Part shown: positions 3,001 to 64,000 of the stretch, in pieces
Layout: every line of letters begins with the position of its first letter
How positions within the stretch are numbered: the first letter of the stretch is position 1
Source of the DNA: Lobosporangium transversale
Taxonomy: Eukaryota
NCBI RefSeq assembly: GCF_002105155.1
Contig: NW_019028996.1
Coordinates: forward strand, 682,001 to 746,000
Reading direction: 5' to 3'
Length of the DNA stretch: 64,000 nucleotides
Notes under the pieces: model-generated
The model's database searches: none
What the model was told of the DNA's origin: nothing
Seen by the model: only the letters and a program-made list of their open reading frames with translations
Translations under genes and position numbers: made by a program

Positions 3001-3463
3001 AGTATCAATAAGCGACCCAGCAAGTAGAGCAGTAGTTGTTGATGCTGCATTCCAGCGTGGCCATACACAGACTAACCAGCCTCCACTTCCTCCGCGATCA
3101 ATCGAAGCGGCGGAAACCAGTGCGAGAGGACCAGCTATCGTTGGTAGTGCCGACCAGCCTCCACCACCAGGGAATAAATCGCAAAGTGTGGGTCCATCGG
3201 TTTCAATCGTTACAAAGACTGGAGAGCAAGAAGAAGAAGAAGAAGAGTTTTGGAGGCAAGAGGCACTGCGCCCAGAGAATTGGCTTGAAATCCTATGTAA
3301 CGACCAGGTCCTATCACCGACGATGACATTGGCGACTGTTCGCACACATTATTGGAAGACAGGGAGCGATGTAGTCCTGACTTACCGATATAAGCAACAG
3401 AACATGGCAATAGTATCAACTCTAACAACTACCCCATCGCTATTGCCGTCGTCAGCAACATAG
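1..3463 (+). CDS. WDR48: WD-repeat protein 48-like (UAF1/Duf1/Bun107), multi-exon, 5' end outside window
   Basis: WD40 text across exons ([58 protein letters not shown]). C-terminal motifs [13 protein letters not shown] and [38 protein letters not shown] introns (e.g. ~25-107, ~209-348); stop at 3463. Confidence 0.88.
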
Positions 3464-30697: not shown

Positions 30698-30887
30698 ATG
30701 AGGAGACTTTCTATGGAAAAGGTACAAAATGCTCGGCCTTACTTCGACAAGGGAAGTCTACAAGCGAAGTGGCAAGGAAACTTGGTATCTCTATTCCATC
30801 GGCAATAAGGATCAGGAGTGACGTCAAGGACAATATTCCTAAATCCAGAATGGGCAGACCCTCATTGGTTTCTCCTGCTACCAAGAG
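30698..30887 (+). pseudogene. 5' fragment of a Tc1 transposase cut off by the Gypsy LTR
   Basis: MRRLSMEKVQNAR..QGKSTSEVARKLGISIPSAIRI..MGRPSLV aligns with the HTH/GRP start of the 54773 transposase. Confidence 0.65.
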
Positions 30888-31106
30888 TGCAAAAGTCAAG
30901 GTAGTGTTCTAGGGGGATCTAAGGGTGCAATAAAGGTATCTTTATTCAGGGGGAACTATGCTACAGAACTAGATAGAAAAGTAGACCTATTTATACTAGT
31001 TAATATCCTGTTGCAAGGAATGCTCTACAAATATGGGCGAAATACTATGTTGCACAAAATTATTATAGTGATTTCGCTTGCATCCTTCCCGTCATGAAGA
31101 AACCTA

Positions 31107-33866: not shown

Positions 33867-33999
33867 AGTATTTCGCCCATATTTCTAGAGCATTCCTTGC
33901 AACAGGATATTAACTAGTATAAATAGGTCTACTTTCTATCTAGTTCTGTAGCATAGTTCCCCCTGAATAAAGATACCTTTATTGCACCCTTAGATCCCC

Positions 34000-35175
34000 C
34001 TAGAACACTACCTTGACTTTTGCAGTTAGCTGCTTCTTCAGTTCATCAAGCTCAGCGATCGACAATCTGATGACAGGTCGGACAGGTGGGTCAGCATAAG
34101 GGTCAGTCTCTATACGCATGCTATCACCTCTGTCAGGGGGAAGGCCATCAGGAAGCGTTGTAGGAAAGACATCAGGGAATTCGACTTGAACGATTTGCTT
34201 GATAGAGTCCGGTAGTTCAGAACTACTGCTAGAGACAGGTACTGGAACTCGAACTTGGGCGAGGAATACAGAGGCATCAGGTTCCGAGGCAACGGTAAGG
34301 AAGTTAAGAGCAGATATGACGGAAGATCGCTGTCTAGGCTTCCTGTCGATGCCAGTGCAAGGCCACAAGACCGGGGTACCTTGGTATTCAAAATGCAGAT
34401 CATTTGTTCGCCAATTGATGCGAGGGTTGATATCCGTCAGCCATGGTTTACCCAAAATTAGGTCGTATTTGGATAGAGGATAAACAATGGCGTTGATTTT
34501 ATCCTGATACGCGTTGCGGGCGAGGGTGAACGTGGCTGTGTGCTGAGCAATTGTCTCGGTACCGTTGGGAAGAATGACAGGAATGGGTCTACCCTCAATT
34601 AGCGGAACATGTGTGTTCTCGCAGAAAGAGGAACTTATGACATTGCCTTCGGCCCCTCCATCTACAAGAATGCGCGCAGGTCGACCATTCACTGCTCCAA
34701 TGAAAGTAAGGAGTCGGCGAGAGTTTTTATGTTTGGCATAGGTAAGGCTGAAGGATTGAAGGCGAATTTCGTTACGACAATGGGAGTGGCGATTGGATGA
34801 ACTAGGGGTAGATGAATGAGTGGAAGTGAGTGAAGTGGAAACAGTGAAAGGATCAGTGGAGGGGAAAATAGGGTCGGAGAGGGGATTGTTTTTTAGCAAT
34901 GAGGAATGAGTAGGGGAATGGGGATCAGGATGAGGTGAATACTTAGAGAGTAGATGTAAGGAAGTAGATGCAGTGGGAGCAATAGAGTGATCAGAAAGGG
35001 GCATGGATGTTATATTTGTGCACAAAGGCTCTATGACCTCGGTTCCGGCATCTGAAACAACGCCCCTCACGAACGCAACGTTCTCGTTCAGCTGCTGTGA
35101 GCTTGGGTAGCGAGCTTGGCTTGGAGTGGTTTCTGTTTGGTCGTTGCTGATGGAGAGAGGTGTACAGGTTGGCAA
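34000..35175 (-). CDS. Gypsy pol, aspartic protease part (ends inside the inserted LTR)
   Basis: ILVDGGAEGNVIS and YDLILGKPWL. Confidence 0.85.
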   Translation of the reverse strand: MPTCTPLSISNDQTETTPSQARYPSSQQLNENVAFVRGVVSDAGTEVIEPLCTNITSMPLSDHSIAPTASTSLHLLSKYSPHPDPHSPTHSSLLKNNPLSDPIFPSTDPFTVSTSLTSTHSSTPSSSNRHSHCRNEIRLQSFSLTYAKHKNSRRLLTFIGAVNGRPARILVDGGAEGNVISSSFCENTHVPLIEGRPIPVILPNGTETIAQHTATFTLARNAYQDKINAIVYPLSKYDLILGKPWLTDINPRINWRTNDLHFEYQGTPVLWPCTGIDRKPRQRSSVISALNFLTVASEPDASVFLAQVRVPVPVSSSSSELPDSIKQIVQVEFPDVFPTTLPDGLPPDRGDSMRIETDPYADPPVRPVIRLSIAELDELKKQLTAKVKVVF

Positions 35176-35911
35176 CCAACATTCTCATGTTATCGAGATC
35201 CATTGGTGTAGGGCCAGAATTATTCTCATGATGGGGTGATAAGGCGTTCGGGGTAGCGGATACAGGGGTGGCATCGATGGGATGTAGAATACTGTGGACA
35301 ATGGTCGCCTGCTCAATGGCATCGTCCAACGTCTCTGGCTGTCTAAGTCTTACCTGCTTGCTTGTTTCGGGCTCAAGGCCTAGCATGTATTTTTGCAAAG
35401 CAGAGTCTTTGTCGAGATTTGTAGCCAGACGTAGGTGGCTTCTAAACTTGCTCGTATATTCTGCCACACTCATCCTTCCCTGACGAAGTTTATCCAACGC
35501 TCGGCGAGCTGCATTCGCAGAATCTGGAGGGGTGAACTGACGGAGGAATGCTTTACGGAAGTCAGCCCAAGGTGTATCGAGATTCAACCCGGAATCTCTC
35601 CACCATGCCTTGGCTTCGCCATTGAGACTGAGGACAGCGTATCGAACCCATTTGGATGGCGTGAGTGTGACAATAGTGTAATACTCCTCCAGGCTGTCGA
35701 CAAAGTTTAAGGCTGCAACAGCGTTAATAGCTCCTTCGTAAGGCGTAGGCTTCTGTGGCTTTAGGACCGTGGCGAGGGTTCTGGCTAGGTCATTCTCAGC
35801 GGCTTCGTTGACTTTAGCAGTAGAGAGGGCCTGATTAAAAGCAGTAGCTATGGCTTCGCGAATGTTCAGAGGAAGATCGATGGACGAAAGGGCGTTATTC
35901 AAGTGTTCCAT
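34991..35911 (-). CDS. gag: Gypsy gag
   Basis: LNGEAKAWW, LRQGRMSVAEY, GPTPMDLD, zinc knuckle CFRCRNRGH. Confidence 0.92.
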   Translation of the reverse strand: MEHLNNALSSIDLPLNIREAIATAFNQALSTAKVNEAAENDLARTLATVLKPQKPTPYEGAINAVAALNFVDSLEEYYTIVTLTPSKWVRYAVLSLNGEAKAWWRDSGLNLDTPWADFRKAFLRQFTPPDSANAARRALDKLRQGRMSVAEYTSKFRSHLRLATNLDKDSALQKYMLGLEPETSKQVRLRQPETLDDAIEQATIVHSILHPIDATPVSATPNALSPHHENNSGPTPMDLDNMRMLVANLYTSLHQQRPNRNHSKPSSLPKLTAAERERCVREGRCFRCRNRGHRAFVHKYNIHAPF

Positions 35912-36555
35912 GGCGAGGGGTGAAATTCAATGGTAATTGTAGTTCTCTGGGGGTGGTCGTGGTTTCCTTTGCTACCAATGCAAAAGTCAAGGTAGTGTTC
36001 TAGGGGGATCTAAGGGTGCAATAAAGGTATCTTTATTCAGGGGGAACCATGCTACAGAACTAGATAGAAAAGTAGACCTATTTATACTAGTTAATATCCT
36101 GTTGCAAGGAATGCTCTAGAAATATGGGCGAAATACAATGTTGCACAAAATTATTATAGTGATTTCGCTTGCAACGCGACTTGGCTTGACAGGCAAACTA
36201 TGCATGGAGGAATGAGTGAAGGAAATGAGCGGAACAAATTAATCAAGCACACGTGATCTTTTTCAGATTCGAATCAGACAAAAGTCATTCATCAATTCAT
36301 GAGCTAGACATTGCTTGCTGTTCGTGACAAAATATCTAATTAACTTTGAAAGTGCATTTATTTTCATTACACATCTATCACAAAAGGCTGTAATAAAGCT
36401 GACCATTTCAAGCTACATTTAAATGTAATGTACTAAGTGCTCAAAGTCCCCAATATACAAAGTAACAGCTATTCAAACAGATCTGCAAAATTATAAAGCC
36501 TATGTCAACAAAATGGGACGTCCGTACAATGTTGGTAAAAAAAATAGAATTGCTG

Positions 36556-44525: not shown

Positions 44526-45253
44526 GACTACAGTGGTCATCAAAAGTCATTCAATGAATTAGGAATTTCGACATTCTCATTCCTTTCCCAATTTGATCTT
44601 GCTTGTCGCTAATGAAACTTACGTAGCGAGTTCGACCATCGACAATGTCACTCCTACTACAATGTCAATGAGCTCCTGTAGCTAATTGAAAATTTAGATG
44701 AATGCCAATTATTGGCATCTCATTGAATGCCATTTGAAGAAAATCGGGAGCTTTGCTTTATTTGTTTTTTTTTCTGTTCTTCAGTAATGTGTACGACCTC
44801 CTTTCTTGCGATGTAGCTTCTCTACCCTTCGTGGCTGTCACGAACAGCAAGCAATGTCTAGCTCATGAATTGATGAATGACTTTTGTCTGATTCGAATCT
44901 GAAAAAGATCACGTGTGCTTGATTAATTTGTTCCGCTCATTTCCTTCACTCATTCCTCCATGCATAGTTTGCCTGTCAAGCCAAGTCGCGTTGCAAGCGA
45001 AATCACTATAATAATTTTGTGCAACATTGTATTTCGCCCATATTTCTAGAGCATTCCTTGCAACAGGATATTAACTAGTATAAATAGGTCTACTTTTCTA
45101 TCTAGTTCTGTAGCATGGTTCCCCCTGAATAAAGATACCTTTATTGCACCCTTAGATCCCCCTAGAACACTACCTTGACTTTTGCATTGGTAGCAAAGGA
45201 AACCACGACCACCCCCAGAGAACTACAATTACCATTGAATTTCACCCCTCGCC

Positions 45254-46174
45254 ATGGAACACTTGAATAACGCCCTTTCGTCCATCGATCTTCCTCTGAA
45301 CATTCGCGAAGCCATAGCTACTGCTTTTAATCAGGCCCTCTCTACTGCTAAAGTCAACGAAGCCGCTGAGAATGACCTAGCCAGAACCCTCGCCACGGTC
45401 CTAAAGCCACAGAAGCCTACGCCTTACGAAGGAGCTATTAACGCTGTTGCAGCCTTAAACTTTGTCGACAGCCTGGAGGAGTATTACACTATTGTCACAC
45501 TCACGCCATCCAAATGGGTTCGATACGCTGTCCTCAGTCTCAATGGCGAAGCCAAGGCATGGTGGAGAGATTCCGGGTTGAATCTCGATACACCTTGGGC
45601 TGACTTCCGTAAAGCATTCCTCCGTCAGTTCACCCCTCCAGATTCTGCGAATGCAGCTCGCCGAGCGTTGGATAAACTTCGTCAGGGAAGGATGAGTGTG
45701 GCAGAATATACGAGCAAGTTTAGAAGCCACCTACGTCTGGCTACAAATCTCGACAAAGACTCTGCTTTGCAAAAATACATGCTAGGCCTTGAGCCCGAAA
45801 CAAGCAAGCAGGTAAGACTTAGACAGCCAGAGACGTTGGACGATGCCATTGAGCAGGCGACCATTGTCCACAGTATTCTACATCCCATCGATGCCACCCC
45901 TGTATCCGCTACCCCGAACGCCTTATCACCCCATCATGAGAATAATTCTGGCCCTACACCAATGGATCTCGATAACATGAGAATGTTGGTTGCCAACCTG
46001 TACACCTCTCTCCATCAGCAACGACCAAACAGAAACCACTCCAAGCCAAGCTCGCTACCCAAGCTCACAGCAGCTGAACGAGAACGTTGCGTTCGTGAGG
46101 GGCGTTGTTTCAGATGCCGGAACCGAGGTCATAGAGCCTTTGTGCACAAATATAACATCCATGCCCCTTTCTGA
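45254..46174 (+). CDS. gag: Gypsy gag
   Basis: Protein identical to 34991-35911. Confidence 0.92.
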   Translation: MEHLNNALSSIDLPLNIREAIATAFNQALSTAKVNEAAENDLARTLATVLKPQKPTPYEGAINAVAALNFVDSLEEYYTIVTLTPSKWVRYAVLSLNGEAKAWWRDSGLNLDTPWADFRKAFLRQFTPPDSANAARRALDKLRQGRMSVAEYTSKFRSHLRLATNLDKDSALQKYMLGLEPETSKQVRLRQPETLDDAIEQATIVHSILHPIDATPVSATPNALSPHHENNSGPTPMDLDNMRMLVANLYTSLHQQRPNRNHSKPSSLPKLTAAERERCVREGRCFRCRNRGHRAFVHKYNIHAPF

Positions 46175-47165
46175 TCACTCTATTGCTCCCACTGCATCTA
46201 CTTCCTTACATCTACTCTCTAAGTATTCACCTCATCCTGATCCCCATTCCCCTACTCATTCCTCATTGCTAAAAAACAATCCCCTCTCCGACCCTATTTT
46301 CCCCTCCACTGATCCTTTCACTGTTTCCACTTCACTCACTTCCACTCATTCATCTACCCCTAGTTCATCCAATCGCCACTCCCATTGTCGTAACGAAATT
46401 CGCCTTCAATCCTTCAGCCTTACCTATGACAAACATAAAAACTCTCGCCGACTCCTTACTTTCATTGGAGCAGTGAATGGTCGACCTGCGCGCATTCTTG
46501 TAGATGGAGGGGCCGAAGGCAATGTCATAAGTTCCTCTTTCTGCGAGAACACACATGTTCCGCTAATTGAGGGTAGACCCATTCCTGTCATTCTTCCCAA
46601 CGGTACCGAGACAATTGCTCAGCACACAGCCACGTTCACCCTCGCCCGCAACGCGTATCAGGATAAAATCAACGCCATTGTTTATCCTCTATCCAAATAC
46701 GACCTAATTTTGGGTAAACCATGGCTGACGGATATCAACCCTCGCATCAATTGGCGAACAAATGATCTGCATTTTGAATACCAAGGTACCCCGGTCTTGT
46801 GGCCTTGCACTGGCATCGACAGGAAGCCTAGACAGCGATCTTCCGTCATATCTGCTCTTAACTTCCTTACCGTTGCCTCGGAACCTGATGCCTCTGTATT
46901 CCTCGCCCAAGTTCGAGTTCCAGTACCTGTCTCTAGCAGTAGTTCTGAACTACCGGACTCTATCAAGCAAATCGTTCAAGTCGAATTCCCTGATGTCTTT
47001 CCTACAACGCTTCCTGATGGCCTTCCCCCTGACAGAGGTGATAGCATGCGTATAGAGACTGACCCTTATGCTGACCCACCTGTCCGACCTGTCATCAGAT
47101 TGTCGATCGCTGAGCTTGATGAACTGAAGAAGCAGCTAACTGCAAAAGTCAAGGTAGTGTTCTAG
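45990..47165 (+). CDS. Gypsy pol, protease part
   Basis: ILVDGGAEG; one substitution versus copy 1 (YDKH vs YAKH). Confidence 0.85.
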   Translation: MPTCTPLSISNDQTETTPSQARYPSSQQLNENVAFVRGVVSDAGTEVIEPLCTNITSMPLSDHSIAPTASTSLHLLSKYSPHPDPHSPTHSSLLKNNPLSDPIFPSTDPFTVSTSLTSTHSSTPSSSNRHSHCRNEIRLQSFSLTYDKHKNSRRLLTFIGAVNGRPARILVDGGAEGNVISSSFCENTHVPLIEGRPIPVILPNGTETIAQHTATFTLARNAYQDKINAIVYPLSKYDLILGKPWLTDINPRINWRTNDLHFEYQGTPVLWPCTGIDRKPRQRSSVISALNFLTVASEPDASVFLAQVRVPVPVSSSSSELPDSIKQIVQVEFPDVFPTTLPDGLPPDRGDSMRIETDPYADPPVRPVIRLSIAELDELKKQLTAKVKVVF

Positions 47166-47334
47166 GGGGATCTAAGGGTGCAATAAAGGTATCTTTATTC
47201 AGGGGGAACTATGCTACAGAACTAGATAGAAAGTAGACCTATTTATACTAGTTAATATCCTGTTGCAAGGAATGCTCTAGAAATATGGGCGAAATACTAT
47301 GTTGCACATAATTATTAGAGTGATTTCGCTTGCA
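47141..47334 (-). mobile_element. Antisense solo LTR-A inside pol
   Basis: TGCA...TGCA with TSD CTAAC; removal restores KKQLTDLLQK in frame. Confidence 0.95.
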
Positions 47335-50058
47335 CTAACTGATCTTTTACAAAAAGGATTAATCTCACCGAGCACCTCACCATACGGTGCTCCAGTCCTC
47401 TTTGTGAAGAAAAAGGATGGCTCGCTTCGAATGTGTGTTGATTATCGGGGCCTGAACAAGATCACAAAGAAAAACAGGTACCCCTTACCACGGATCGATG
47501 AATTGATCGACAGATTCAGAACAGCTAAATGTTTTACCAAGCTGGATCTACTCTCGGGCTATCATCAAATGCGTGTCCATCCTGATGATAAACACAAGAC
47601 CGCGTTCCGAACTCGCTATGGCCACTACGAGTTTAACGTCGTACCTTTCGGTCTTACAAATGCACCTGCAGCGTTCTCGACTATGATGCGTAACGTACTT
47701 GATCCACTTCTTGATAAATGTGTTGTTGTGTATCTCGATGATATTTTAATTTACTCCGATAACGAGAAAGATCACTTAGAGCACATCCGAAAAGTACTCT
47801 CCCTCTTGCGTCAAGCTGGGCTTTATTGTAAATTATCCAAGTATTCCTTCATGCAGGAAGAGACTGAGTTCCTAGGCCATGTCATATCCAAGGATGGACT
47901 CAAGACGAATGGCGGACTTGTCAAGGCAATAAGGGAATGGCCAGTACCAACAACCCAACGACATGTGATGCAATTCCTTGGTTTGACTAATTTTTACCAT
48001 CAGTACATTTCTCATTACGCTGATATTGCTCTTCCCCTCACACAATTGTTAGGCTGCAATAAGGAATTCCACTGGGGAAAATCTCAACAAGACGCCTTTG
48101 AGACTTTGAAAAGAGCAGTGAGCTCAGCACCAGTTCTTAGGATATTCGATCCTGCCCTCTCTACAGCAGTCGAAACAGACGCTTCAGGCTTTGCAATTGG
48201 TGCTGTCTTGTTCCAGACGGACCAAAATGGTGAATCACGACCAGTAGCTTTTACTTCACGCAAGCTCAACCCAGCGGAACGCAACTATCCTACACACGAA
48301 CAAGAACTGCTGGCTGTGGTGCATGCTCTGAAGACATGGCGATACTACCTTGATGGTTCTCACTTTGTCGTTTATACCGACCATGCCACTCTACAACATT
48401 TTCCTAGCCAGCCGAACTTGACTCGCAGACAAGCAAGATGGATGGAGTTGCTTCAAGAGTATGATTTCGTATTCAAGTATAAACCTGGTAAAGATAACGT
48501 CGTCCCTGATGCTCTTTCACGAAGACCGGACCTCAAGGACTTGGAGGCTACACCTACTACTTTGAACTCCTTGGTTATCAATCTAGACCCTGGCATTCGA
48601 AAACAACTAGCCAGTTGCTACCTACACGATCCAATTCTAGGTCCCCTCGTGCATCAGTATAAGGATGCCTCTACCCCGGATCGTTACTTCGTGGTAGATG
48701 GTCTACTCTGGATCAACGCTGGACAAGGCCCTCGCCTCTGCATACCCAAGGACGACGGACTCCGTTCACAACTCTTGCATGACGCTCACGACGCTCCTAT
48801 ATCAGGCCACTTGGGACTCGATAAAACGTACAGTAGCATGCGACGAACATATTTTTGGCCACGCATGGCGAGGGATATAAAAAAATACATTGCTTCCTGT
48901 GAGCAATGCCAGCGTAACAAGCCTTCACTAAAGCCTCCTGCAGGGCTTTTCCAACCTTTGGCAATTCCAAGCCAACGATGGGATACTGTAACAATGGACT
49001 TCATTGTCAAGCTTCCGAAGACAGCCAGAGGTTTTGACGCGATTACGGTCTTTGTGGACAAACTGTCCAAGCAAGTTCATTTCTGCGCTAGCCGAACTAC
49101 CGACACTGCCTCTGATGTTGCACGACTCTTTTTCGACAATGTTTTTAGACTGCACGGCATGCCTCGGACAATTGTGTCAGATAGAGATTCACGTTTCACC
49201 GGCAAGTTCTGGACAACGTTGATGAAGCTCATGGGCACCAAACTTAACATGTCTACTGCCTTCCTTCCACAATCAGACGGACAAACAGAGCGCGCCAACA
49301 GAACATTAGAAGAAATGCTCCGCTCTTACATATCGTACAAGCAAAACGACTGGGATCTTTTACTGCCTATGATGGAGTTCGCATACAACAACTCTGTCAA
49401 TCCTACGACAGGCTTCTCCCCATTCTTTCTGAACTATGGTCACCATCCACTAGTCCCTGGATCTCTTTTAAAGCCACCTGATACCAATGTTCCGGCTGTC
49501 AGTGATTTTGTTCGAACCCAGTCGATGAATTTGGCGCTAGCTCAGGATGCCATCATCGAAGCGCAGAATAGGCAAAAGGCCCAAGCGGACAAAACTCGCA
49601 GGCCTGCTACGTTTGCTGTGGGTGACATGGTGCTCTTAAGCTCGGAAAACATCTCTGTCGCGGGACATAAAAATAGGCCGTCGCAGAAACTGGAACCTGA
49701 GTACATAGGCCCTTACAAGATCATTTCGAAGGTCAATGAAAATGCCTACAAGCTGGAACTACCGCCTGACATGCATCAACATCCAGTCTTTAATGCCGAT
49801 CTGCTTCGCCCCTATATTGAGTCACCTCGTGAATTCGGCGACCGCTTACCACCACGCCCTGCCCCCGAGCTTGTAGATGGAGAAGAGGAGTATGAAGTCG
49901 ACAAAATCATTGACTTCAAAATGTTTGGCAAAACTCCTAAGTGGCTCGTTCTTTGGAAAGGCTATCCATTAGATGAAGCCACTTGGGAAACAAAATCTTC
50001 GCTCGCAAACGCTAAAGAGGCGCTTGCCGTCTTTGAGGCTTCAAGAAAAACAAGATAA
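47299..50058 (+). CDS. pol: Gypsy pol, RT-RNase H-integrase-chromodomain part
   Basis: Same 919-aa ORF as copy 1; the first ~12 codons come from the inserted LTR. Confidence 0.95.
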
Positions 50059-51295
50059 TAGGTTTCTTCATGACGGGAAGGATGCAAGCGAAATCACTAT
50101 AATAATTTTGTGCAACATAGTATTTCGCCCATATTTGTAGAGCATTCCTTGCAACAGGATATTAACTAGTATAAATAGGTCTACTTTTCTATCTAGTTCT
50201 GTAGCATGGTTCCCCCTGAATAAAGACACCTTTATTACACCCTTAGATCCCCCTAGAACACTACCTTGATTTTTGCACGCGTCTCCTAGTTTTCTAGCTC
50301 CGTGAATAGCTCCAAGGATTCTAGAAGAGCTATAAACCAATAACCAAGACTTATAGTGCCAAGGAACCTTGCAATAAGATTGCACCAGATATCTTCCTCG
50401 GATCCTGTGTATTAAGTTAACTCAACACTTGAAGTTCCGCATATGGTAAAAGTCCTTAGGAAATATTTGAGTAAGCTTTATTTAGAGTTCTTGAAGCGCG
50501 TCTCCGCTTCAGTCAAACAAGTATAAATATGATAGATTTGTAACATAGTAAACCTCAGTCTGCAATAAAACTATTCTTGAATCTCCTAAGCTCATTTTTG
50601 TTCCTAAATCACTTACCTTCTCTTGCAATTGTCCTGTCAGTCCTTGACGGTAATTGCACGCGAGGTTGATACGGGTATATTTAGATCCATTCTGGCAGTT
50701 CAAGAATACATCAGATCGAGCAGTGCTCCTATTCGAACCATTCGAATCGAATTCGAATAGATATCAGGATTCGAATGCTATTCGAACCGCTCGAATGATT
50801 CGAGCCATTCGAACCGTTCGAATGATTCGAACCATTCGAACCATTCGACATTCGAACCATTCGACATTCGAACCGTTCGAATGATTCGAACCATTCGAAC
50901 CATTCGACATTCGAACCGTTCGAATGATTCGAACCATTCGACCCTCGAATCATTCGAACCATTCGAACCATTCGACACTCGAACCATTCGAACCATTCGA
51001 TACACGATAGGAAATGGTAATTCTAAACTTGTGTTTGTAGTTTTCATTATGTTTCATCTCCTGCCTTATTTCTCTTTCCTTCTTTTTCCTCTTTTGCCTT
51101 TCTTCCTGTGGTTCCCCGAAATTTAATCAAATAAAAGACTACCCCTTTTAACTTATTCATGCATGATTTGGTTTGAACTTGTTGCTCTTTTTTTTTTTTT
51201 TTTCCTAATTTCCTAATTCCCACGCCAATTAGTAGTGTTATCTTAATCTTTTTCTTTCCGTTTTTTTTTTTTTCTTTCATTTACTGATTATTTTC

Positions 51296-54441: not shown

Positions 54442-56069
54442 CACTATCATGCAAAACTGATTCAATAATTCATTCCCATGTGCATTTCTTTTTTTCATTC
54501 CTAGAAACCGTATATGCATACACCACTCATACTTTGGTTTAATAAAGCTCCCGTCTTCTTCTACGTCCTAGTGATGCGTTGTGACATTAGCTTGTCTCAT
54601 TTGAATAGCTAATGACTTTTTTGTTCATGCAGGTCATTGAATCAGTTTCACATGTGGTCTAAAATGTTGCCCATGGCAACTTTTGGACGTCATTTAATGC
54701 CAGTAAAAAAAGGACTTTTCTCTCTTTCCTTTATGAACACTTGCTTAACTCTTAACTATACCTTCACAGAATATGAGACCCACTCCACAAAGGAAAGTCA
54801 ACGAAGCCAGGAGGTTAATGATGGGAGGCATGTCTACTAGAGAAACTGCTGCTAGTGTTGGTATATCAATAGCGACGGCCACCAGGATCTATGCACATAA
54901 TAAGGAGTACATGCCAGTCAATAAAGGCGGTCGACCAAGGAAAGTACCTAGAGGTATCATGCAGTATCTTAAGGTGAACATGAAACGAGGTACACTCAAG
55001 TCTGCAGTTGAGGCCACCGCCAGAGCCAACCAGCTCATACCAGCGGCTGTTTCTGAGACCACCGTTAGACGACGGCTCAAGGAGTTAGGATTGACAGCAA
55101 AGAGGCGTGTACATAAGCCAGCTTTACGTCGACGACATATTAAAGCTCGTTTGCATTTTATCAAAAAGTATAAGGAATGGACTCTGGAAGATTGGAAAAA
55201 GGTTATTTGGTCAGATGAATCGAAAATAAACCGAATCTGCTCTGATGGCGTGCAGTGGATCTGGGGCGACAATCCGGGACGCCTCACTCGCAGGTCGGTG
55301 CAAGGCACTGTCAAGTTTGGGGGTGGTAATGTTAAAGTGTGGTCATGCTTCTCATGGCACGGACCTGGATACATTGCAAAGATTGACAATAATATGGACG
55401 CACAACTTTACATCAAACTACTGCAGGAGGATCTACAGATGTCGCTTGGTGACTGGGGCCTAACTAAAAGCGATATCGTCTTTCAGCACGACAATGACTC
55501 GAAGCACACGGCGAAGATTGTTAGGAAGTATTTGGAGTCAGTACATCTGACAGAAGAGGAAGGTACACTTCTAGAGTGGCCAGCACAATCCCCTGACCTC
55601 AACCCTATTGAACACATGTGGGCAGAATTGGATAGGCGGCTCTCTAGGTATCCGGAGCGAGCTAAGAGCTGTGATGAACTATGGGAGCGAATATCGGTTG
55701 AATGGTACAGGATCCCAGTGGACTTCTGCCGCAAACTCATCATAGATATCCATAAGAGACTCCAAGCTGTCAGTGATGCCCATGGTTGGAATACTATCTA
55801 TTGATGTAAGGTTATGGCTCACAAAAGAATAAAGATCTTTGGCCACCGAATGGGCACATGTGAAACTGATTCAATGACCTGAATGAACAAAAAAGCCATT
55901 AGCTATTCAAATGAGACAAGCTAATGTCACAACGCATCACTATGACGTAGAAGAAGACGGGAGCTTTATTAAACCAAAGTATGAGTGGTGTATGCATATA
56001 CGGTTTCTAGGAATGAAAAAAAGAAATGCACATGGGAATGAATTATTGAATCAGTTTTGCATGATAGTG
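54442..56069 (+). mobile_element. Intact Tc1-like transposon with 215-bp TIRs
   Basis: TA TSD; TIRs 54442-54656 and 55855-56069. Confidence 0.95.
54773..55804 (+). CDS. Tc1 DDE transposase, 343 aa, uninterrupted
   Basis: GRPRK, WSDESK, FQHDNDSKH, WPAQSPDLNPIEHMW. Confidence 0.95.
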   Translation: MRPTPQRKVNEARRLMMGGMSTRETAASVGISIATATRIYAHNKEYMPVNKGGRPRKVPRGIMQYLKVNMKRGTLKSAVEATARANQLIPAAVSETTVRRRLKELGLTAKRRVHKPALRRRHIKARLHFIKKYKEWTLEDWKKVIWSDESKINRICSDGVQWIWGDNPGRLTRRSVQGTVKFGGGNVKVWSCFSWHGPGYIAKIDNNMDAQLYIKLLQEDLQMSLGDWGLTKSDIVFQHDNDSKHTAKIVRKYLESVHLTEEEGTLLEWPAQSPDLNPIEHMWAELDRRLSRYPERAKSCDELWERISVEWYRIPVDFCRKLIIDIHKRLQAVSDAHGWNTIY

Positions 56070-56073
56070 TATA

Positions 56074-56420
56074 CAGTGCTCCTATTCGAACCTTTCGAAT
56101 CGAATTTCACTGATATCGAATTCGATTCGAATGAGGTAAGCTCAAATTCGATTCGAATTCGATTAGATAACAAAATTCGAATGCTATTCGAATGGTTCGA
56201 ATGATTCGAGCGAACTATTGGCACAATAGTAAATGATAATTTTAAACTTTTTTTTTTATTTTTTTTTGATTGGGTGTAAAGTACAAGGACCATACTTTCG
56301 CTACGCGTAACCAGAGGCCCTATTCGAACCATTCGAACCATTCGAATCGAACCAGGATATGGCTTATTTGAATCGATTCGAATTTATCACGATTCGAATT
56401 CGAATCGAATAGGAGCACTG
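56074..56420. mobile_element. 347-bp non-autonomous hAT (MITE) nested in the parent hAT
   Basis: Same TIRs as the parent; TSD GACATATA, left copy split by the Tc1 insertion. Confidence 0.9.
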
Positions 56421-56721
56421 GACATATATAGTTTTCTAAATAAGAGTAAAAGTATCTCTCAAAACTAGCAAATCAAATAAAACTTTTTACAATACAACTC
56501 TGAACCAGGGTTATGAACTATATCACCCCTACCACTTCACAATTCAAACCACCACGCTCCTATTCGAATCATTCGAACCATTCGACACTCGAACCATTCG
56601 AACCATTCGAACCATTCGACACTCGAACTATTCGAACCATTCGAACCATTGGAATCGAACCAGGATATGGCTTATTCGAAGCTATTCGAATTCGAACCGT
56701 TCGATTCGAATAGGAGCACTG

Positions 56722-58608
56722 AGTAGGTGTAGCCTCCGAGTCCTTGAGGTCCGGTCTTCGTGAAAGAGCATCAGGGACGACGTTATCTTTACCAGGTTTA
56801 TACTTGAATACGAAATCATACTCTTGAAGCAACTCCATCCATCTTGCTTGTCTGCGAGTCAAGTTCGGCTGGCTAGGAAAATGTTGTAGAGTGGCATGGT
56901 CGGTATAAACGACAAAGTGAGAACCATCAAGGTAGTATCGCCATGTCTTCAGAGCATGCACCACAGCCAGCAGTTCTTGTTCGTGTGTAGGATAGTTGCG
57001 TTCCGCTGGGTTGAGCTTGCGTGAAGTAAAAGCTACTGGTCGTGATTCACCATTTTGGTCCGTCTGGAACAAGACAGCACCAATTGCAAAGCCTGAAGCG
57101 TCTGTTTCGACTGCTGTAGAGAGGGCAGGATCGAATATCCTAAGAACTGGTGCTGAGCTCACTGCTCTTTTCAAAGTCTCAAAGGCGTCTTGTTGAGATT
57201 TTCCCCAGTGGAATTCCTTATTGCAGCCTAACAATTGTGTGAGGGGAAGAGCAATATCAGCGTAATGAGAAATGTACTGATGGTAAAAATTAGTCAAACC
57301 AAGGAATTGCATCACATGTCGTTGGGTTGTTGGTACTGGCCATTCCCTTATTGCCTTGACAAGTCCGCCATTCGTCTTGAGTCCATCCTTGGATATGACA
57401 TGGCCTAGGAACTCAGTCTCTTCCTGCATGAAGGAATACTTGGATAATTTACAATAAAGCCCAGCTTGACGCAAGAGGGAGAGTACTTTTCGGATGTGCT
57501 CTAAGTGATCTTTCTCGTTATCGGAGTAAATTAAAATATCATCGAGATACACAACAACACATTTATCAAGAAGTGGATCAAGTACGTTACGCATCATAGT
57601 CGAGAACGCTGCAGGTGCATTTGTAAGACCGAAAGGTACGACGTTAAACTCGTAGTGGCCATAGCGAGTTCGGAACGCGGTCTTGTGTTTATCATCAGGA
57701 TGGACACGCATTTGATGATAGCCCGAGAGTAGATCCAGCTTGGTAAAACATTTAGCTGTTCTGAATCTGTCGATCAATTCATCGATCCGTGGTAAGGGGT
57801 ACCTGTTTTTCTTTGTGATCTTGTTCAGGCCCCGATAATCAACACACATTCGAAGCGAGCCATCCTTTTTCTTCACAAAGAGGACTGGAGCACCGTATGG
57901 TGAGGTGCTCGGTGAGATTAATCCTTTTTGTAAAAGATCAGTTAGTGCAAGCGAAATCACTCTAATAATTATGTGCAACATAGTATTTCGCCCATATTTC
58001 TAGAGCATTCCTTGCAACAGGATATTAACTAGTATAAATAGGTCTACTTTCTATCTAGTTCTGTAGCATAGTTCCCCTGAATAAAGATACCTTTATTGCA
58101 CCCTTAGATCCCCCTAGAACACTACCTTGACTTTTGCAGTTAGCTGCTTCTTCAGTTCATCAAGCTCAGCGATCGACAATCTGATGACAGGTCGGACAGG
58201 TGGGTCAGCATAAGGGTCAGTCTCTATACGCATGCTATCACCTCTGTCAGGGGGAAGGCCATCAGGAAGCGTTGTAGGAAAGACATCAGGGAATTCGACT
58301 TGAACGATTTGCTTGATAGAGTCCGGTAGTTCAGAACTACTGCTAGAGACAGGTACTGGAACTCGAACTTGGGCGAGGAATACAGAGGCATCAGGTTCCG
58401 AGGCAACGGTAAGGAAGTTAAGAGCAGATATGACGGAAGATCGCTGTCTAGGCTTCCTGTCGATGCCAGTGCAAGGCCACAAGACCGGGGTACCTTGGTA
58501 TTCAAAATGCAGATCATTTGTTCGCCAATTGATGCGAGGGTTGATATCCGTCAGCCATGGTTTACCCAAAATTAGGTCGTATTTGGATAGAGGATAAACA
58601 ATGGCGTT
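56722..58608 (-). mobile_element. Gypsy copy 3, internal fragment (end of protease, solo LTR 57946-58138, RT-RNase H)
   Basis: Near-identical to 32609-34494; bounded by a hAT TIR on the left and a PLE pseudo-LTR on the right. Confidence 0.93.
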
Positions 58609-58663
58609 TGATAAGTAGGATGGGTTTTTTTGTGAAAAAGTGGAAAAAGTGACTGAGAGTGAG

Positions 58664-58722
58664 AAAGAAGACTGCGGGACAAGTGCTTGTTTCGATCTTT
58701 TCTCTTCAGCCTTGTCTTCTTT
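58664..58722 (-). ncRNA. Type I hammerhead ribozyme, copy 1
   Basis: aaagaagac-aa-gg CUGAAGA ga-aaaga-uc GAAA caag-ca-cuug UC cc-gca-gucuucuuu. Confidence 0.88.
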
Positions 58723-59060
58723 TTATACTTTTTTCACGCCTCTCGGACTCTCGGGAGAGAGGGTGAACGGTAACCCAAAAAGGAATCATTATCCAAATCG
58801 GGTCTCATCCGGAAACTCCTAGATTGTTTCAGATTGAGTCAGTTATGACGTAAGATCTAAAATTAATCTAAGTATAGATTACAAATAATTTATCCGAACG
58901 GTTAGACTAAAAAAGGAAGGTCTAAGTCCGAAAAAATCCTAGGATATATGTATCATTTCCGTGGTACGCGTCGACCTAGCAAACAGGTTTATTTGGAGCC
59001 AGCAAACCAGTTATTTGTGGCTTTCTACTCCTTAACTAGGGTCACGTGACAAAATTTATT

Positions 59061-59197
59061 TTTAGGTATCTATTTTTAGGGTCTATTTTTAGGGTTTTTT
59101 AGGGTTTTTTAGGGTTTTTTAGGGTTTTTAGGGTTTTTTAGGGTTTTTTAGGGTTTTTAGGGTTTTTTAGGGTTTTTTAGGGTTTTTTAGGGTTTTT
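59061..59197 (+). repeat. Telomere-like tract ending in about 10 regular T5-6AGGG units
   Basis: Mostly TTTTTTAGGG from 59095. Confidence 0.93.
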
Positions 59198-59251
59198 GAT
59201 AAGTAGGATGGGTTTTTTTGTGAAAAAGTGGAAAAAGTGACTGAGAGTGAG

Positions 59252-59310
59252 AAAGAAGACTGCGGGACAAGTGCTTGTTTCGATCTTTTCTCTTCAGCCT
59301 TGTCTTCTTT
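59252..59310 (-). ncRNA. Type I hammerhead ribozyme, copy 2
   Basis: Identical to copy 1. Confidence 0.88.
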
Positions 59311-59648
59311 TTATACTTTTTTCACGCCTCTCGGACTCTCGGGAGAGAGGGTGAACGGTAACCCAAAAAGGAATCATTATCCAAATCGGGTCTCATCCGG
59401 AAACTCCTAGATTGTTTCAGATTGAGTCAGTTATGACGTAAGATCTAAAATTAATCTAAGTATAGATTACAAATAATTTATCCGAACGGTTAGACTAAAA
59501 AAGGAAGGTCTAAGTCCGAAAAAATCCTAGGATATATGTATCATTTCCGTGGTACGCGTCGACCTAGCAAACAGGTTTATTTGGAGCCAGCAAACCAGTT
59601 ATTTGTGGCTTTCTACTCCTTAACTAGGGTCACGTGACAAAATTTATT

Positions 59649-59749
59649 TTTAGGTATCTATTTTTAGGGTCTATTTTTAGGGTTCTATTTTAGGGTTTTT
59701 TTAGGGTTATTTTTAGGGTTTTCTTTTAGGGTTATTTTTAGGGTTAGGG
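59649..59749 (+). repeat. Element-encoded degenerate telomere-like tract
   Basis: Irregular TnAGGG units ending TTAGGG; same sequence at 63821-63921. Confidence 0.9.
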
Positions 59750-59905
59750 TCAAGGAGGGTCAGCTCTGGCCTATACCATGAACCTGAGAAAACTCCTAAA
59801 AAATCTAAAGAAAACTTACTAAGTCTAAAAAACCGGACCTATTTTGTCGGGGATGAGGGCTAGTTATAATATAAGATACAGAAGAGATCTCATTGAACTA
59901 GTCAT

Positions 59906-61411
59906 CTACAATCGACTCCTTATTGGGGCGGATTGGAGAATCTTTTTATTATAGGTGTTCAACTGGTTGCGCAGGTTGGAGCCTTTATAAATTATCCATG
60001 TGGTTTGTGTATTCTCATAACGGGCAGGTTTGAGGGTATGGATATCTCGTAGAATCATACGTCCAAACTGTTCAAGTTTGTCACGTCCAGGGATGTTATG
60101 GAGGAACATTTTTTTGATAATAGTATCATTTTTCTGAGACGAGGGTGCCGGGTACAAAAGAGTATTCCGTTCATCGTATGAGTGTAATCTGAGTTGATTG
60201 TTGATTACATGTGAGGGGTAGTTTCTATTAAGAAGATGTTGGGCAAATTGTGCTGTGGCATGGGTGTGGAAAGAAGACTGACTAGAGTTTCTAATTAGTC
60301 TTTGGTTTTCACCATTAATCCAGTTAAAAACATATTTCCTAGGGTAGTATGTATCTGGATCAGTGTATAGGTGTTTATTAACGGGTTTGTCGAAAGGAGC
60401 AATAGTAAATCGGGTTGGACTAGTATTGTTATCGACAGAAATAAGAAGGTCGAGCATAACTACTTGTTGACCATTGTTACCATGGTCGATAGTGATATTA
60501 AGACTTTGACAAGAGGCATAAATCTGATGAAGTTTAATGTCAATGTATGGTTTCAAAAGATTGAATGTCTCTTTAGACCAGGGAAGGTTATCATGTTTGG
60601 TAGTTCTGATTATGGCAAAGCCATCATCTATATACCGGAACAGGGTGATGTCAAAGAAATCGAGTTTATAGAAAAACATTGGGGAATTAGTGTCAACTGG
60701 AAGGTTGTCAGGAAAAACTCCATGGAATTGTTGTTGTTTCTCTACGCAGCATGCAAAGAGGCGGGCTATGGTGGGTGCCATGGGAGTTCCCATAGCTAAG
60801 CCTTTGACTTGTCTGTAATTATTTGTAAGGTCAGAGACAAGGCAGTTCTTATTAACCCATTCTGCGAGTTTCAGACATATTTGGATTTCATAATTGTAAG
60901 AATGATTGCAGAAGTAGTGTAGTATGGTTTTTCTGGCTTCTTCAAAGTCGATGTTACCATACATGTTGATGACGTCGAAAGCTGCTAATGAGTAATGGCA
61001 GTAAGGATCAAAGTCAAAATTTTCTAGATAACGTATTAGTGTGGGGGTGTCGGGAAGATCTCTAGGGAACTCATTAAGTAGAGGGCGCAGGTTTCTATCG
61101 ACAAACTGACTAATAGTGTGTGTTATCCAAGGGAAAGAGGGGACTATAGGTCTAGCACCGGGTGGTGACTTATGTATTTTAGGTAAAAGATACATAACTG
61201 GGACAGTATAGAAGTTAGGATTGGTTCTAACATTATCTCTTATTAGTTTAGCTTCTGAGAGTAATTTATTTTTAATTCTAAGAGGACTAAGATTGACTAT
61301 AGAAAAGAGTGAGTTTATCATATTGTCAATGGAGAACGAAGGGCACGGGACATAACAGGAAGTATCTGTTAGAAGTTTCGTAGTCTGGGATGTATACCAG
61401 TCTAGGTCCAT
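59906..61411 (-). CDS. Penelope-like reverse transcriptase with no GIY-YIG endonuclease; true N-terminus lies further upstream
   Basis: YLLPKIHK..RPIV, FDVINMYGNI, QVKGLAMGTPMAP, FRYIDDGF, MLDLLI, KPVNKHLY; ORF ends after the thumb with no GIY..YIG. Confidence 0.93.
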   Translation of the reverse strand: MDLDWYTSQTTKLLTDTSCYVPCPSFSIDNMINSLFSIVNLSPLRIKNKLLSEAKLIRDNVRTNPNFYTVPVMYLLPKIHKSPPGARPIVPSFPWITHTISQFVDRNLRPLLNEFPRDLPDTPTLIRYLENFDFDPYCHYSLAAFDVINMYGNIDFEEARKTILHYFCNHSYNYEIQICLKLAEWVNKNCLVSDLTNNYRQVKGLAMGTPMAPTIARLFACCVEKQQQFHGVFPDNLPVDTNSPMFFYKLDFFDITLFRYIDDGFAIIRTTKHDNLPWSKETFNLLKPYIDIKLHQIYASCQSLNITIDHGNNGQQVVMLDLLISVDNNTSPTRFTIAPFDKPVNKHLYTDPDTYYPRKYVFNWINGENQRLIRNSSQSSFHTHATAQFAQHLLNRNYPSHVINNQLRLHSYDERNTLLYPAPSSQKNDTIIKKMFLHNIPGRDKLEQFGRMILRDIHTLKPARYENTQTTWIIYKGSNLRNQLNTYNKKILQSAPIRSRL

Positions 61412-61498
61412 AATAGTGAGTCCTAAGTTTTTTATCAGCAGGGAATGATAATTTATTCGAGGTCATTAGATTTCTGTAGGATTTTTTTTTTTTTTTTA

Positions 61499-62752
61499 TT
61501 AATTATGGTTTGTAGCATCGAACAGAACATTAGCTAGATTAATATCTAGTTTATTAATATTCCTACAAAGTTGGTTACGCAATTTCTTTAGTTCTGAGCT
61601 CAGAACAACATAGTTGGGAGGTTTATGTATATTGAAATTGACTCCTTTATTTAAGACTTGAAGAATATCATGGGGGATGGATTGTACGGAAGACATATTG
61701 TTGACTCCGACAAAATCATGTAAATCTACTTTTTTTGTTTCTGAGGGGATGGGGCTTTTTTCACGGGGCCTTTTCCTTTCTTTACATGGGTGGTTTTCTT
61801 GGAGGACGTTGGGGGACCACCTTTCTTCTTGTCTTTCTTCGCCATCGATGGGCCTTTTGGTCCTTTGTATTTGTTGGTGTCGTTCTGTCGACGTGATGGC
61901 TTGGGTTTGCTTGGCTTCTTCTTCGAGGCGTCCTTCTTGGTATTCTAGAGGGAAAGTAGAGTTGATCTTAGAATAGATTATATTTAATCGTGGAGCAAAC
62001 CAAAGGGAAACAATTATCTTGAATACCTTTAATCCAAGATTTAATTGCTGGAATTCTGCAGTGGCTCGTAATACTTGCACTTGAGCAGAAAACTCAATAG
62101 CAGTGGCACGAATCAGCTTGTAGGTGAAGTCTTTACCCAGATTATTCAGATGAGAATTGTTTTCAACGGCCACAAGGGCAGATGAAAGGGTGTCCGCTAG
62201 CTGTCTGGGGAGGGTGTCATTGAGTTCACTTTGGCATTGTTGGATGATATTTGCTTTGTCAGCTTTAATGGCCGATACTAACAAATTGTCAAACGAAGTG
62301 CTAAGTGTAGCAAGGACGTCCTTTGACAGGGTAACACGGTTATTGTTGACAGTAAGATGTCCCCAATAGCCTAGTTGTGTCTTAGCGTTGACTTCACGCA
62401 GAATCTTCTGAGCCATTCGGATTTTATCCAAAAGAATGGCCGCCTTATTGACAAATTTGCTTAAGATGTCTGCGGCAACCCTGTCAGTCATCGTTCCCTT
62501 TTTGAAAGAGGGAAGATAGGAACCAGGGTTCAGAGAGGTGTCACTATTCCCAATATGATTATTGAGACGAGCGACGAGCTGCTCGAGGGTGGGAAGGTCT
62601 GCCGGTGCAGTCCCTCCTCCCATCTCGGCATCGGCATCGATCATAGCCTGACCTGGAACTTGTTGACCTGGGGTGACTTGGAAGACATCCTGGTTTCCAC
62701 GGGCAGAGCTTGACGATGAGGAGGGGCCGGGGGCAGCGTGAGTATTGACCAT
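61499..62752 (-). CDS. PLE ORF1 (helical protein; probable intron 61945-62026 gives a basic tail with stop at 61726-61728); the unspliced frame runs into the RT N-terminal region
   Basis: ATG 62752 just after the pseudo-LTR; unspliced C-terminus VNNMSS..LQVLNKGVNF resembles the pre-RT motif of PLEs. Confidence 0.7.
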   Translation of the reverse strand: MVNTHAAPGPSSSSSSARGNQDVFQVTPGQQVPGQAMIDADAEMGGGTAPADLPTLEQLVARLNNHIGNSDTSLNPGSYLPSFKKGTMTDRVAADILSKFVNKAAILLDKIRMAQKILREVNAKTQLGYWGHLTVNNNRVTLSKDVLATLSTSFDNLLVSAIKADKANIIQQCQSELNDTLPRQLADTLSSALVAVENNSHLNNLGKDFTYKLIRATAIEFSAQVQVLRATAEFQQLNLGLKVFKIIVSLWFAPRLNIIYSKINSTFPLEYQEGRLEEEAKQTQAITSTERHQQIQRTKRPIDGEERQEERWSPNVLQENHPCKERKRPREKSPIPSETKKVDLHDFVGVNNMSSVQSIPHDILQVLNKGVNFNIHKPPNYVVLSSELKKLRNQLCRNINKLDINLANVLFDATNHN

Positions 62753-62830
62753 CTTGAGAGGAACTTGAGGGTTTTTGATAAGTAGGATGGGTTTTTTTGT
62801 GAAAAAGTGGAAAAAGTGACTGAGAGTGAG

Positions 62831-62889
62831 AAAGAAGACTGCGGGACAAGTGCTTGTTTCGATCTTTTCTCTTCAGCCTTGTCTTCTTT
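62831..62889 (-). ncRNA. Type I hammerhead ribozyme, copy 3 (5' pseudo-LTR of the full element)
   Basis: Identical to copy 1; predicted cleavage after GUC, between 62845 and 62844. Confidence 0.88.
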
Positions 62890-63227
62890 TTATACTTTTT
62901 TCACGCCTCTCGGACTCTCGGGAGAGAGGGTGAACGGTAACCCAAAAAGGAATCATTATCCAAATCGGGTCTCATCCGGAAACTCCTAGATTGTTTCAGA
63001 TTGAGTCAGTTATGACGTAAGATCTAAAATTAATCTAAGTATAGATTACAAATAATTTATCCGAACGGTTAGACTAAAAAAGGAAGGTCTAAGTCCGAAA
63101 AAATCCTAGGATATATGTATCATTTCCGTGGTACGCGTCGACCTAGCAAACAGGTTTATTTGGAGCCAGCAAACCAGTTATTTGTGGCTTTCTACTCCTT
63201 AACTAGGGTCACGTGACAAAATTTATT

Positions 63228-63368
63228 TTTAGGTATCTATTTTTAGGGTCTATTTTTAGGGTTCTATTTTAGGGTTTTTTTTAGGGTTATTTTTTAGGGT
63301 TTTTTTTAGGGTTATTTTTAGGGTATAGGGTTTTTTTATTTTTAGGGTTATTTTTAGGGTTATTTTAG
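63228..63368 (+). repeat. Degenerate telomere-like tract between pseudo-LTRs 3 and 4
   Basis: Starts like the encoded tract, then diverges into irregular TTATTTTTAGGG-type units. Confidence 0.9.
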
Positions 63369-63423
63369 GATAAGTAGGATGGGTTTTTTTTGTGAAAAAG
63401 TGGAAAAAGTGACTGAGAGTGAG

Positions 63424-63482
63424 AAAGAAGACTGCGGGACAAGTGCTTGTTTCGATCTTTTCTCTTCAGCCTTGTCTTCTTT
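63424..63482 (-). ncRNA. Type I hammerhead ribozyme, copy 4
   Basis: Identical to copy 1. Confidence 0.88.
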
Positions 63483-63820
63483 TTATACTTTTTTCACGCC
63501 TCTCGGACTCTCGGGAGAGAGGGTGAACGGTAACCCAAAAAGGAATCATTATCCAAATCGGGTCTCATCCGGAAACTCCTAGATTGTTTCAGATTGAGTC
63601 AGTTATGACGTAAGATCTAAAATTAATCTAAGTATAGATTACAAATAATTTATCCGAACGGTTAGACTAAAAAAGGAAGGTCTAAGTCCGAAAAAATCCT
63701 AGGATATATGTATCATTTCCGTGGTACGCGTCGACCTAGCAAACAGGTTTATTTGGAGCCAGCAAACCAGTTATTTGTGGCTTTCTACTCCTTAACTAGG
63801 GTCACGTGACAAAATTTATT

Positions 63821-63921
63821 TTTAGGTATCTATTTTTAGGGTCTATTTTTAGGGTTCTATTTTAGGGTTTTTTTAGGGTTATTTTTAGGGTTTTCTTTTA
63901 GGGTTATTTTTAGGGTTAGGG
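63821..63921 (+). repeat. Element-encoded degenerate telomere-like tract of the next copy
   Basis: Same as 59649-59749 and followed by the same tcaaggagggtcagctctgg 3' UTR. Confidence 0.9.
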
Positions 63922-64000
63922 TCAAGGAGGGTCAGCTCTGGCCTATACCATGAACCTGAGAAAACTCCTAAAAAATCTAAAGAAAACTTACTAAGTCTAA

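Follow-up and report, generated by a model that had tools for sequence, protein, structure and literature searches.

A run of a candidate host telomere repeat between tandem copies of a Penelope-like retroelement in a Mortierellaceae fungus

Which of the telomere-like tracts in a retroelement array were copied from the element itself, and which were added to its cDNA by another enzyme? This question is raised by the last 5.4 kb of the window (the whole stretch of 64,000 nucleotides analysed here), which form a head-to-tail array of a Penelope-like retroelement without endonuclease (Table 1). The window is fungal: the 22 best homologues of the host protein encoded at 1475-3463 are 44-80% identical to it, and the named ones are all from Mortierellaceae. 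Four units of the array share their start sequence (starts at 58610, 59198, 62777, and 63369), and their first 445 bases are identical in all four except for one extra T in unit 4. The element lies on the minus strand, so that the plus strand corresponds to its cDNA. All units are directed, like the G-rich tracts, to the right end of the window, which stops inside unit 4. A first-pass annotation of this DNA had distinguished tracts encoded by the element from tracts added after truncation, and had read them as a record of alternating extension by telomerase and retroelement. To follow this up, the array was compared with the short-read contigs of five out of eight sequencing runs (X1, X2, X3, X7, and X8). 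The depth of these contigs is not equal to copy number, and the contigs cannot show chromosome ends and drop rare variants.

Table 1. Features of the retroelement array and of the sequence that it adjoins (window coordinates).
Feature	Position	Strand	Basis
Ty3/gypsy LTR-retrotransposon fragment, cut where the array begins	56722..58608	-	99.8% identity to two full copies; RT/RNase H matches
Unit 1: first copy of the 445-bp terminal repeat (pseudo-LTR)	58610..59054	-	identity across four units
First 42 bases of the encoded irregular tract, cut short	59055..59096	+	exact prefix of 59643-59749
Ten regular units (8 T6AGGG, 2 T5AGGG); likely host telomere repeat	59095..59192	+	not element-encoded; perfect tandem contigs in X1, X2, X7, X8
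Short tag AGGG-T5 ahead of unit start; likely RNA priming site	59189..59197, also 62768-62776	+	same 9 bases
Unit 2: full-length Penelope-like element, ~3.63 kb counting assembly loss	59198..62776	-	
Type I hammerhead ribozyme motif, predicted cut after 59266	59250..59310	-	descriptor scan
Element-encoded irregular telomere-like tract, 9 units, no T6AGGG	59643..59749	+	unbranched contig; equivalent in L001
3' UTR, from RT stop to encoded tract	59750..59905	-	tract-adjacent motif conserved in L001
Single long ORF with ORF1 domain followed by RT and thumb; endonuclease absent	59906..62752	-	contigs; full-length relatives
GT..AG intron of 82 bases	61945..62026	-	skipped in an X7 contig, not in X1-X3
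Unit 3: 5' pseudo-LTR (terminal repeat preceding the ORF)	62777..63221	-	joint at 62776 in 4/4 runs
Whole encoded tract with four one-base indels, plus 37 bases of encoded-type units	63222..63368	+	sequence comparison; not telomerase-type
Unit 4: 3' end of the next copy, encoded tract intact (63815-63921), runs off the window	63369..64000	-	

The irregular tract that adjoins the 3' UTR is element-encoded, because it lies inside one unbranched contig (59199-60285; depth 3847, 239, and 253 in X1, X2, and X3) and because a relative has its own version at the same place. This relative, L001, is the one confirmed locus out of 237 pattern matches in a metagenome scan and the sole relative compared at the DNA level. 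Its unit measures 3887 bases, with a terminal repeat of 123 bases, and its protein is 50-51% identical to that of the window element. Its layout is the same as in the window, with a hammerhead, an irregular telomere-like tract directly past the 3' UTR, and a short telomere-like tag before the start codon. That the tracts at 59649-59749 and 63821-63921 belong to the element was thus correctly recognized in the first-pass annotation: they are letter-identical, and each continues into 3' UTR sequence that is identical up to the window end. The full encoded tract is slightly longer (59643-59749 and 63815-63921); X7 reaches it at 59691-59745 only. The hammerhead is about 390 bases away from this tract, and the point at which copies begin about 450; at this distance the tract probably does not serve for priming but provides finished copies with a built-in, telomere-like seed at their far end. 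On the RNA strand, the encoded tract of L001 (3809-3880) contains AATAAA twice and that of the window once, at its end. A role in polyadenylation is possible, though copies do not start there.

The tract that precedes unit 2 (59055-59197) begins as the encoded tract does. Its first 42 bases (59055-59096) match, the copy stops at 59096 in ...TTTTTAGGGTT, in register with T6AGGG, and from there the sequence switches in register to regular units. The regular run, described earlier as about ten T5-6AGGG units, indeed comprises ten (8 T6AGGG and 2 T5AGGG) and a final T5; none of them occurs among the nine encoded units. Over the 101 added bases, 2 edits separate the run from pure (T6AGGG)n, against 29 for the encoded tract. 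Slippage of the RT, which had been offered as an alternative source, is disfavoured by these 29 edits, and polymerase slippage on the encoded tract is an unlikely origin of the run. Two adjacent T6AGGG units occur five times in the window, always within this tract, and never in 100 shuffles. No X2 or X7 contig spans the T5 unit at 59125, and both T5 units may thus be consensus errors. None of the contigs listed bridges the switch at 59096 or the joint with the Ty3 element, and the depth bins leave no room for a bridging contig in X2, or at the Ty3 joint in X1. Since rare joints between high-copy repeats drop out of such contigs, this absence is neither support nor disproof.

The regular unit, TTTTTTAGGG, had been named as a candidate host repeat, and it is likely the telomere repeat of the host, because perfect tandem (T6AGGG)n is abundant in all four runs compared over 58480-59240 (X1, X2, X7, and X8). 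Among the contigs listed, those of pure repeat without any difference have depths of 906 (X2), 348 (X7), and 2540 (X8). In X1 the summed depth at 59104 is ~21,000, and in X1 and X2 the pure repeat reaches 3.4-5.5 times the depth of the element itself. In X2 a T7 unit between T6 neighbours is present at about 13%, as a stuttering template would give. L001 contributes one perfect T6AGGG unit and a 13-base tag in the same register. A T6AGGG unit preceded by GGG is absent from the element, which cannot template the pure repeat; what is found is an abundant and near-perfect tandem that is not element-encoded, as expected of a telomerase repeat. If telomerase makes it, the RNA template is expected to hold ~1.5 copies of CCCUAAAAAA. 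In the parts of the literature examined, the only host named for a T6AGGG telomere repeat is Cestrum elegans, whose (TTTTTTAGGG)n has the same 10-base unit (PMC7857110; PMC10767889; PMC10100673). As this is a flowering plant any match is convergent, and the terminal position, which we infer for the fungus, was shown there. The fungal neighbour Umbelopsis nana has AAACCCT (PMC13042297). No telomere motif of Mortierellaceae was found in the literature searched, although supplements and TeloBase itself could list one; the array yields a candidate repeat for a member of this family.

Two of the runs deserve comment. X8 was considered as an element-free strain that had retained the repeat, and this was rejected because the run behaves like a bisulfite-type library: its contig over 58607-58724 differs at 14 letters where the window has 14 C, CG sites included, and the six differences listed are all C>T. 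X8 is thus no independent control. The 14 differences at C hint that the terminal repeat is unmethylated. X7, which shows a GT..AG skip, is probably RNA; none of the runs listed is recorded as such.

The tract that precedes unit 4 (63222-63368) had been grouped with the one just described, as starting alike and then diverging. This applies to the first tract, which departs after 42 bases, but not to the second, which follows the entire encoded tract with four single-base indels and then continues with 37 encoded-type bases (63332-63368; TTATTTTTAGGG). The grouping of units 1 and 3 therefore fails, and the division into encoded and added tracts holds for 59055-59197 and not for 63222-63368, where no T6AGGG unit occurs. 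Edit distance does not discriminate for the 37 added bases (7 edits to the pure repeat, 6 to the encoded tract); with the element they share an exact stretch of up to 23 bases, with the pure repeat one of up to 11. The tract is not of telomerase type, and it may stem from slippage, re-priming, or a poor consensus, which cannot be told apart here. The chances of a poor consensus are roughly even; a 48-base assembly loss, described below, sits 1.7 kb away.

The junctions between units differ in kind. Unit 1 sits directly on the cut Ty3 element, with two shared T, one extra T, and no telomere repeat. Both full Ty3 copies in the window continue differently past 58608, and the joint marks an old break that the element probably healed. 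The same AGGG-T5 tag stands ahead of units 2 and 3 (before 59198 and 62777) and is also found in an X7 contig; L001 has a longer tag at the equivalent place. The joint from 62776 to a unit start is present in X1, X2, X3, and X7 (4/4 runs) and lies 24 bases from the start codon; in X1-X3 its depth amounts to 44-58% of that at the unit start. Given its presence in these four runs and this position, it is the fixed internal joint of the element and not a fresh event. In a deep X7 contig (depth 367) the encoded tract breaks off at 59743, after which come T5 and a unit start, without regular repeats; a loose end in X8 is compatible with this joint. The short tag marks the beginning of copies and the long tract the end of short units, as in units 1 and 3 and at the X7 joint; we infer that priming is the role of the tag and seeding that of the long tract. 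A telomerase-type tract precedes one of the four unit starts, the others following the broken Ty3 element, the fixed internal joint, and encoded-type units. Alternating extension by telomerase and retroelement was thus an overstatement.

On sequence features, the element is an endonuclease-deficient Penelope-like element of the Coprina/Athena type. For the ORF at 59906-61411, 57 homologues carrying Penelope-type RT motifs were obtained, among them the GIY-YIG-bearing P0027, which the L001 protein matches with E=3e-21. The aligned motifs comprise the DKN, the core motifs, and the thumb of Penelope-type RTs; in the window the assembly loss disrupts the DKN, which is present in P0001 and P0084-P0087. 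Pfam RVT_1 has no match to the window protein itself, and a PDB profile search returned one weak RT match (E=0.008) and no TERT. No Pfam match to GIY-YIG was obtained at E values up to 1 in either window ORF, whereas P0027 scores 4e-8, and the window protein and five close relatives terminate together ~90 aa past the thumb motif. None of the homologues returned is labelled Coprina or Athena. The four unit starts of the window form head-to-tail partial tandems with pseudo-LTRs, and L001 is comparable. A hammerhead descriptor scan of both strands found four motifs in the window, exactly one per unit (predicted cuts after 58678, 59266, 62845, and 63438), and the hammerhead of L001 is 90% identical over 82 bases. 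The motif is not the minimum-energy fold, and in Rfam the region 56000-64000 has no ribozyme or telomerase RNA but 11 weak matches, all far under the gathering scores. Reverse-complement telomere-like repeats are carried by the element, as tract and tag, in both the window and L001. A truncated 5' end followed by likely host telomere repeats is seen once, from 59096, and not at 63222-63368. From the 3' to the 5' end of the element, contig depth drops from 3847 to 2232 in X1, from 239 to 118 in X2, and from 253 to 110 in X3, which is what 5' truncation predicts.

The ORF of unit 2 is split in the window by the assembly loss, which surrounds a poly-T run. The 82 letters of the window at 61433-61514 correspond to 130 in contigs of X1, and the longer version restores exactly 50 codons, as in L001 at this place. 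The window consensus is thus faulty inside the array. X2 and X3 contigs additionally lack one base at 61428. Two separate ORFs were considered and rejected, as the break is explained by this loss; all four full-length relatives are single proteins of 992-1016 aa. A -1 frameshift at the end of a spliced ORF1 was likewise rejected, because the relatives have a single ORF that runs through the intron. The skip of the intron at 61945-62026 is seen in an X7 contig and absent from X1-X3. No other splice joint was found across the element, and thus none in the encoded tract, of which X7 covers 59691-59745. Intron lengths are 82 bases in the window and 100 in L001 (1405-1504), both 3n+1. Intron-encoded residues are partly conserved, with Lys-Val at the donor position in all four full-length single-ORF relatives. 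The unspliced frame would lead to the RT, and the predicted spliced product would be an ORF1 protein of ~314 aa (L001 ~328 aa) with a lysine-rich tail. If RT were made only from unspliced RNA, this would explain why such retroelements keep introns. At 60256-60286 a high-depth foreign contig joins the element from the left (depth ~2830 in X1 and 200 in X2, also present in X3), representing a recombinant 3' end, captured sequence, or an insertion. Further foreign joins occur at 59284, 59490, and 61465, and X2 and X3 contain a diverged copy of 61130-61443 with 29 differences in 313 bases (depth 9 and 13).

The T6AGGG run is probably host repeat that telomerase added to a cDNA stopped in the irregular tract, before the next copy was primed, and we hold this reading with moderate confidence. 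The Ty3 element ends abruptly at 58608, where unit 1 starts. The broken end would have been used as a primer by the element RT, the RNA being copied from its 3' end, leftmost, so as to build the plus strand. The copy halts at 59096, in a register matching T6AGGG, and telomerase would then have lengthened the seed by ~100 bases. The next RNA would anneal through its short AAAAACCCU tag, and this would account for the final T5, in place of T6A, ahead of the unit start. The full-length copy that comes next runs through the fixed joint into a second terminal repeat, which ends again at the irregular tract.

An alternative that deserves attention, though we regard it as unlikely, is that telomerase made the run at a donor locus, from where it was carried as the 3' tail of a read-through RNA and copied by the RT. 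A transcript of unit 2 would read directly into such repeats, a potential template RNA exists in X7, which has the spliced joint and the pure-repeat contig at depth 348, and the regular run ends in the same AGGG-T5 tag as other joints. However, the joints at 62776, after 59743 in X7, and at the Ty3 element carry only the tag or less, so that RNA 3' ends often bring no repeats, and the predicted ribozyme cut at 59266 would remove a read-through tail from the coding RNA. An assembly artefact, by which different chromosome ends were merged and the run is a real telomere not followed by unit 2, seems decidedly improbable. The proven loss at 61433-61514, the homopolymer-type differences, the many near-identical genomic copies, and the missing bridge in the contigs listed would fit it, but a 58-base X1 contig (depth 98, one difference) links the pure repeat to the unit start, demonstrating that such joints exist, and a run 2 edits from perfect over 101 bases is cleaner than a mixed consensus. 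Least credible is that the RT made the repeats, by slippage or by re-priming on its own tags, or that, in a host that lost telomerase, all T6AGGG comes from the element: although the 37 bases at 63332-63368 resemble encoded units, and the fixed internal joint at ~44-58% of unit-start depth implies that chains can grow without telomerase-type tracts, the element has no GGG-preceded T6AGGG unit to copy, and its tag would give T5, whereas the abundant pure repeat is T6 with some T7.

We tentatively, and with considerable reservation, propose a broader picture of this element. It would possess two conserved tags, of which the short one primes and the long, imperfect one seeds finished copies; its chains would be mostly self-primed, with occasional help from telomerase, on a host whose repeat is T6AGGG, and RT would be made from unspliced RNA only.

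Both classes of tract and their alternation are already predicted by the Athena/Coprina model, of which the array is a clear example and not a discovery. An abstract by Gladyshev and Arkhipova from 2007 is said to have already set capping repeats apart from element-borne ones. The array adds that the regular host repeat and the irregular encoded tract make junction bases assignable to RT or telomerase, which would be impossible where both are TTAGGG. Further modest additions are a candidate T6AGGG telomere repeat in a fungus, two separate telomere-like tags, and an intron read through to make RT. In published work, deprotected telomeres or double-strand breaks serve as priming sites for endonuclease-deficient elements, whose truncated 5' end then gains telomeric repeats (PMC3846280); reverse-complement repeats and hammerheads of such elements have also been described (PMC8557442; for related literature see PMC5537684 and bioRxiv 10.64898/2026.07.22.740005). 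With Coprina and Athena, as presented there, the element shares a Penelope-type RT without GIY-YIG, pseudo-LTR tandems, a type I hammerhead, a retained intron, internal reverse-complement telomere-like repeats, priming on telomeres or double-strand breaks, and telomere repeats at 5'-truncated ends (PMC3846280; PMC8557442; PMC13159263; PMC5537684). It differs in its Mortierellaceae host, a lineage unnamed in the literature portions examined, in the position of the long tract ~450 bases from the copy start, in the separate 9-base start tag, and in the T6AGGG repeat.

Fungal Coprina copies are flanked on both sides by repeats, for which telomerase addition is cited (PMC13159263). Coprina-1_Alen of Ascochyta lentis has in common with our element a fungal host, a location at chromosome ends (putative for our element), telomeric repeats on both sides, a coil-type ORF1, RT-thumb, and direct repeats at both ends (PMC13159263). 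It is reported with two ORFs, whereas relatives of the window element have one 1000-aa ORF through an in-frame intron, and the arrays here are multi-unit (PMC13159263). Hammerheads in fungi and the idea of a circular template are treated in another study (PMC4209133). The circular-RNA model for Penelope-like tandems outlined there shares with the array a hammerhead per terminal repeat and more-than-unit head-to-tail copies with one fixed joint, but in the window the start of the copies lies 68 bases past the predicted cut, and the encoded tract, rather than the cut, is where they end (PMC4209133).

The remainder of the window contains other repeats. Two Ty3/gypsy copies of 5443 bases (30887-36329 and 44836-50278) are 99.9% identical and inverted relative to each other, and each holds a third LTR-like repeat of 195 bases between protease and RT (33831-34024 and 47141-47334). 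A 9-base ATTCGAACC-type repeat forms arrays and palindromes (50780-51000 and 56100-56660) at both ends of a hAT element, which itself contains a Tc1/mariner element with 218-base inverted repeats.
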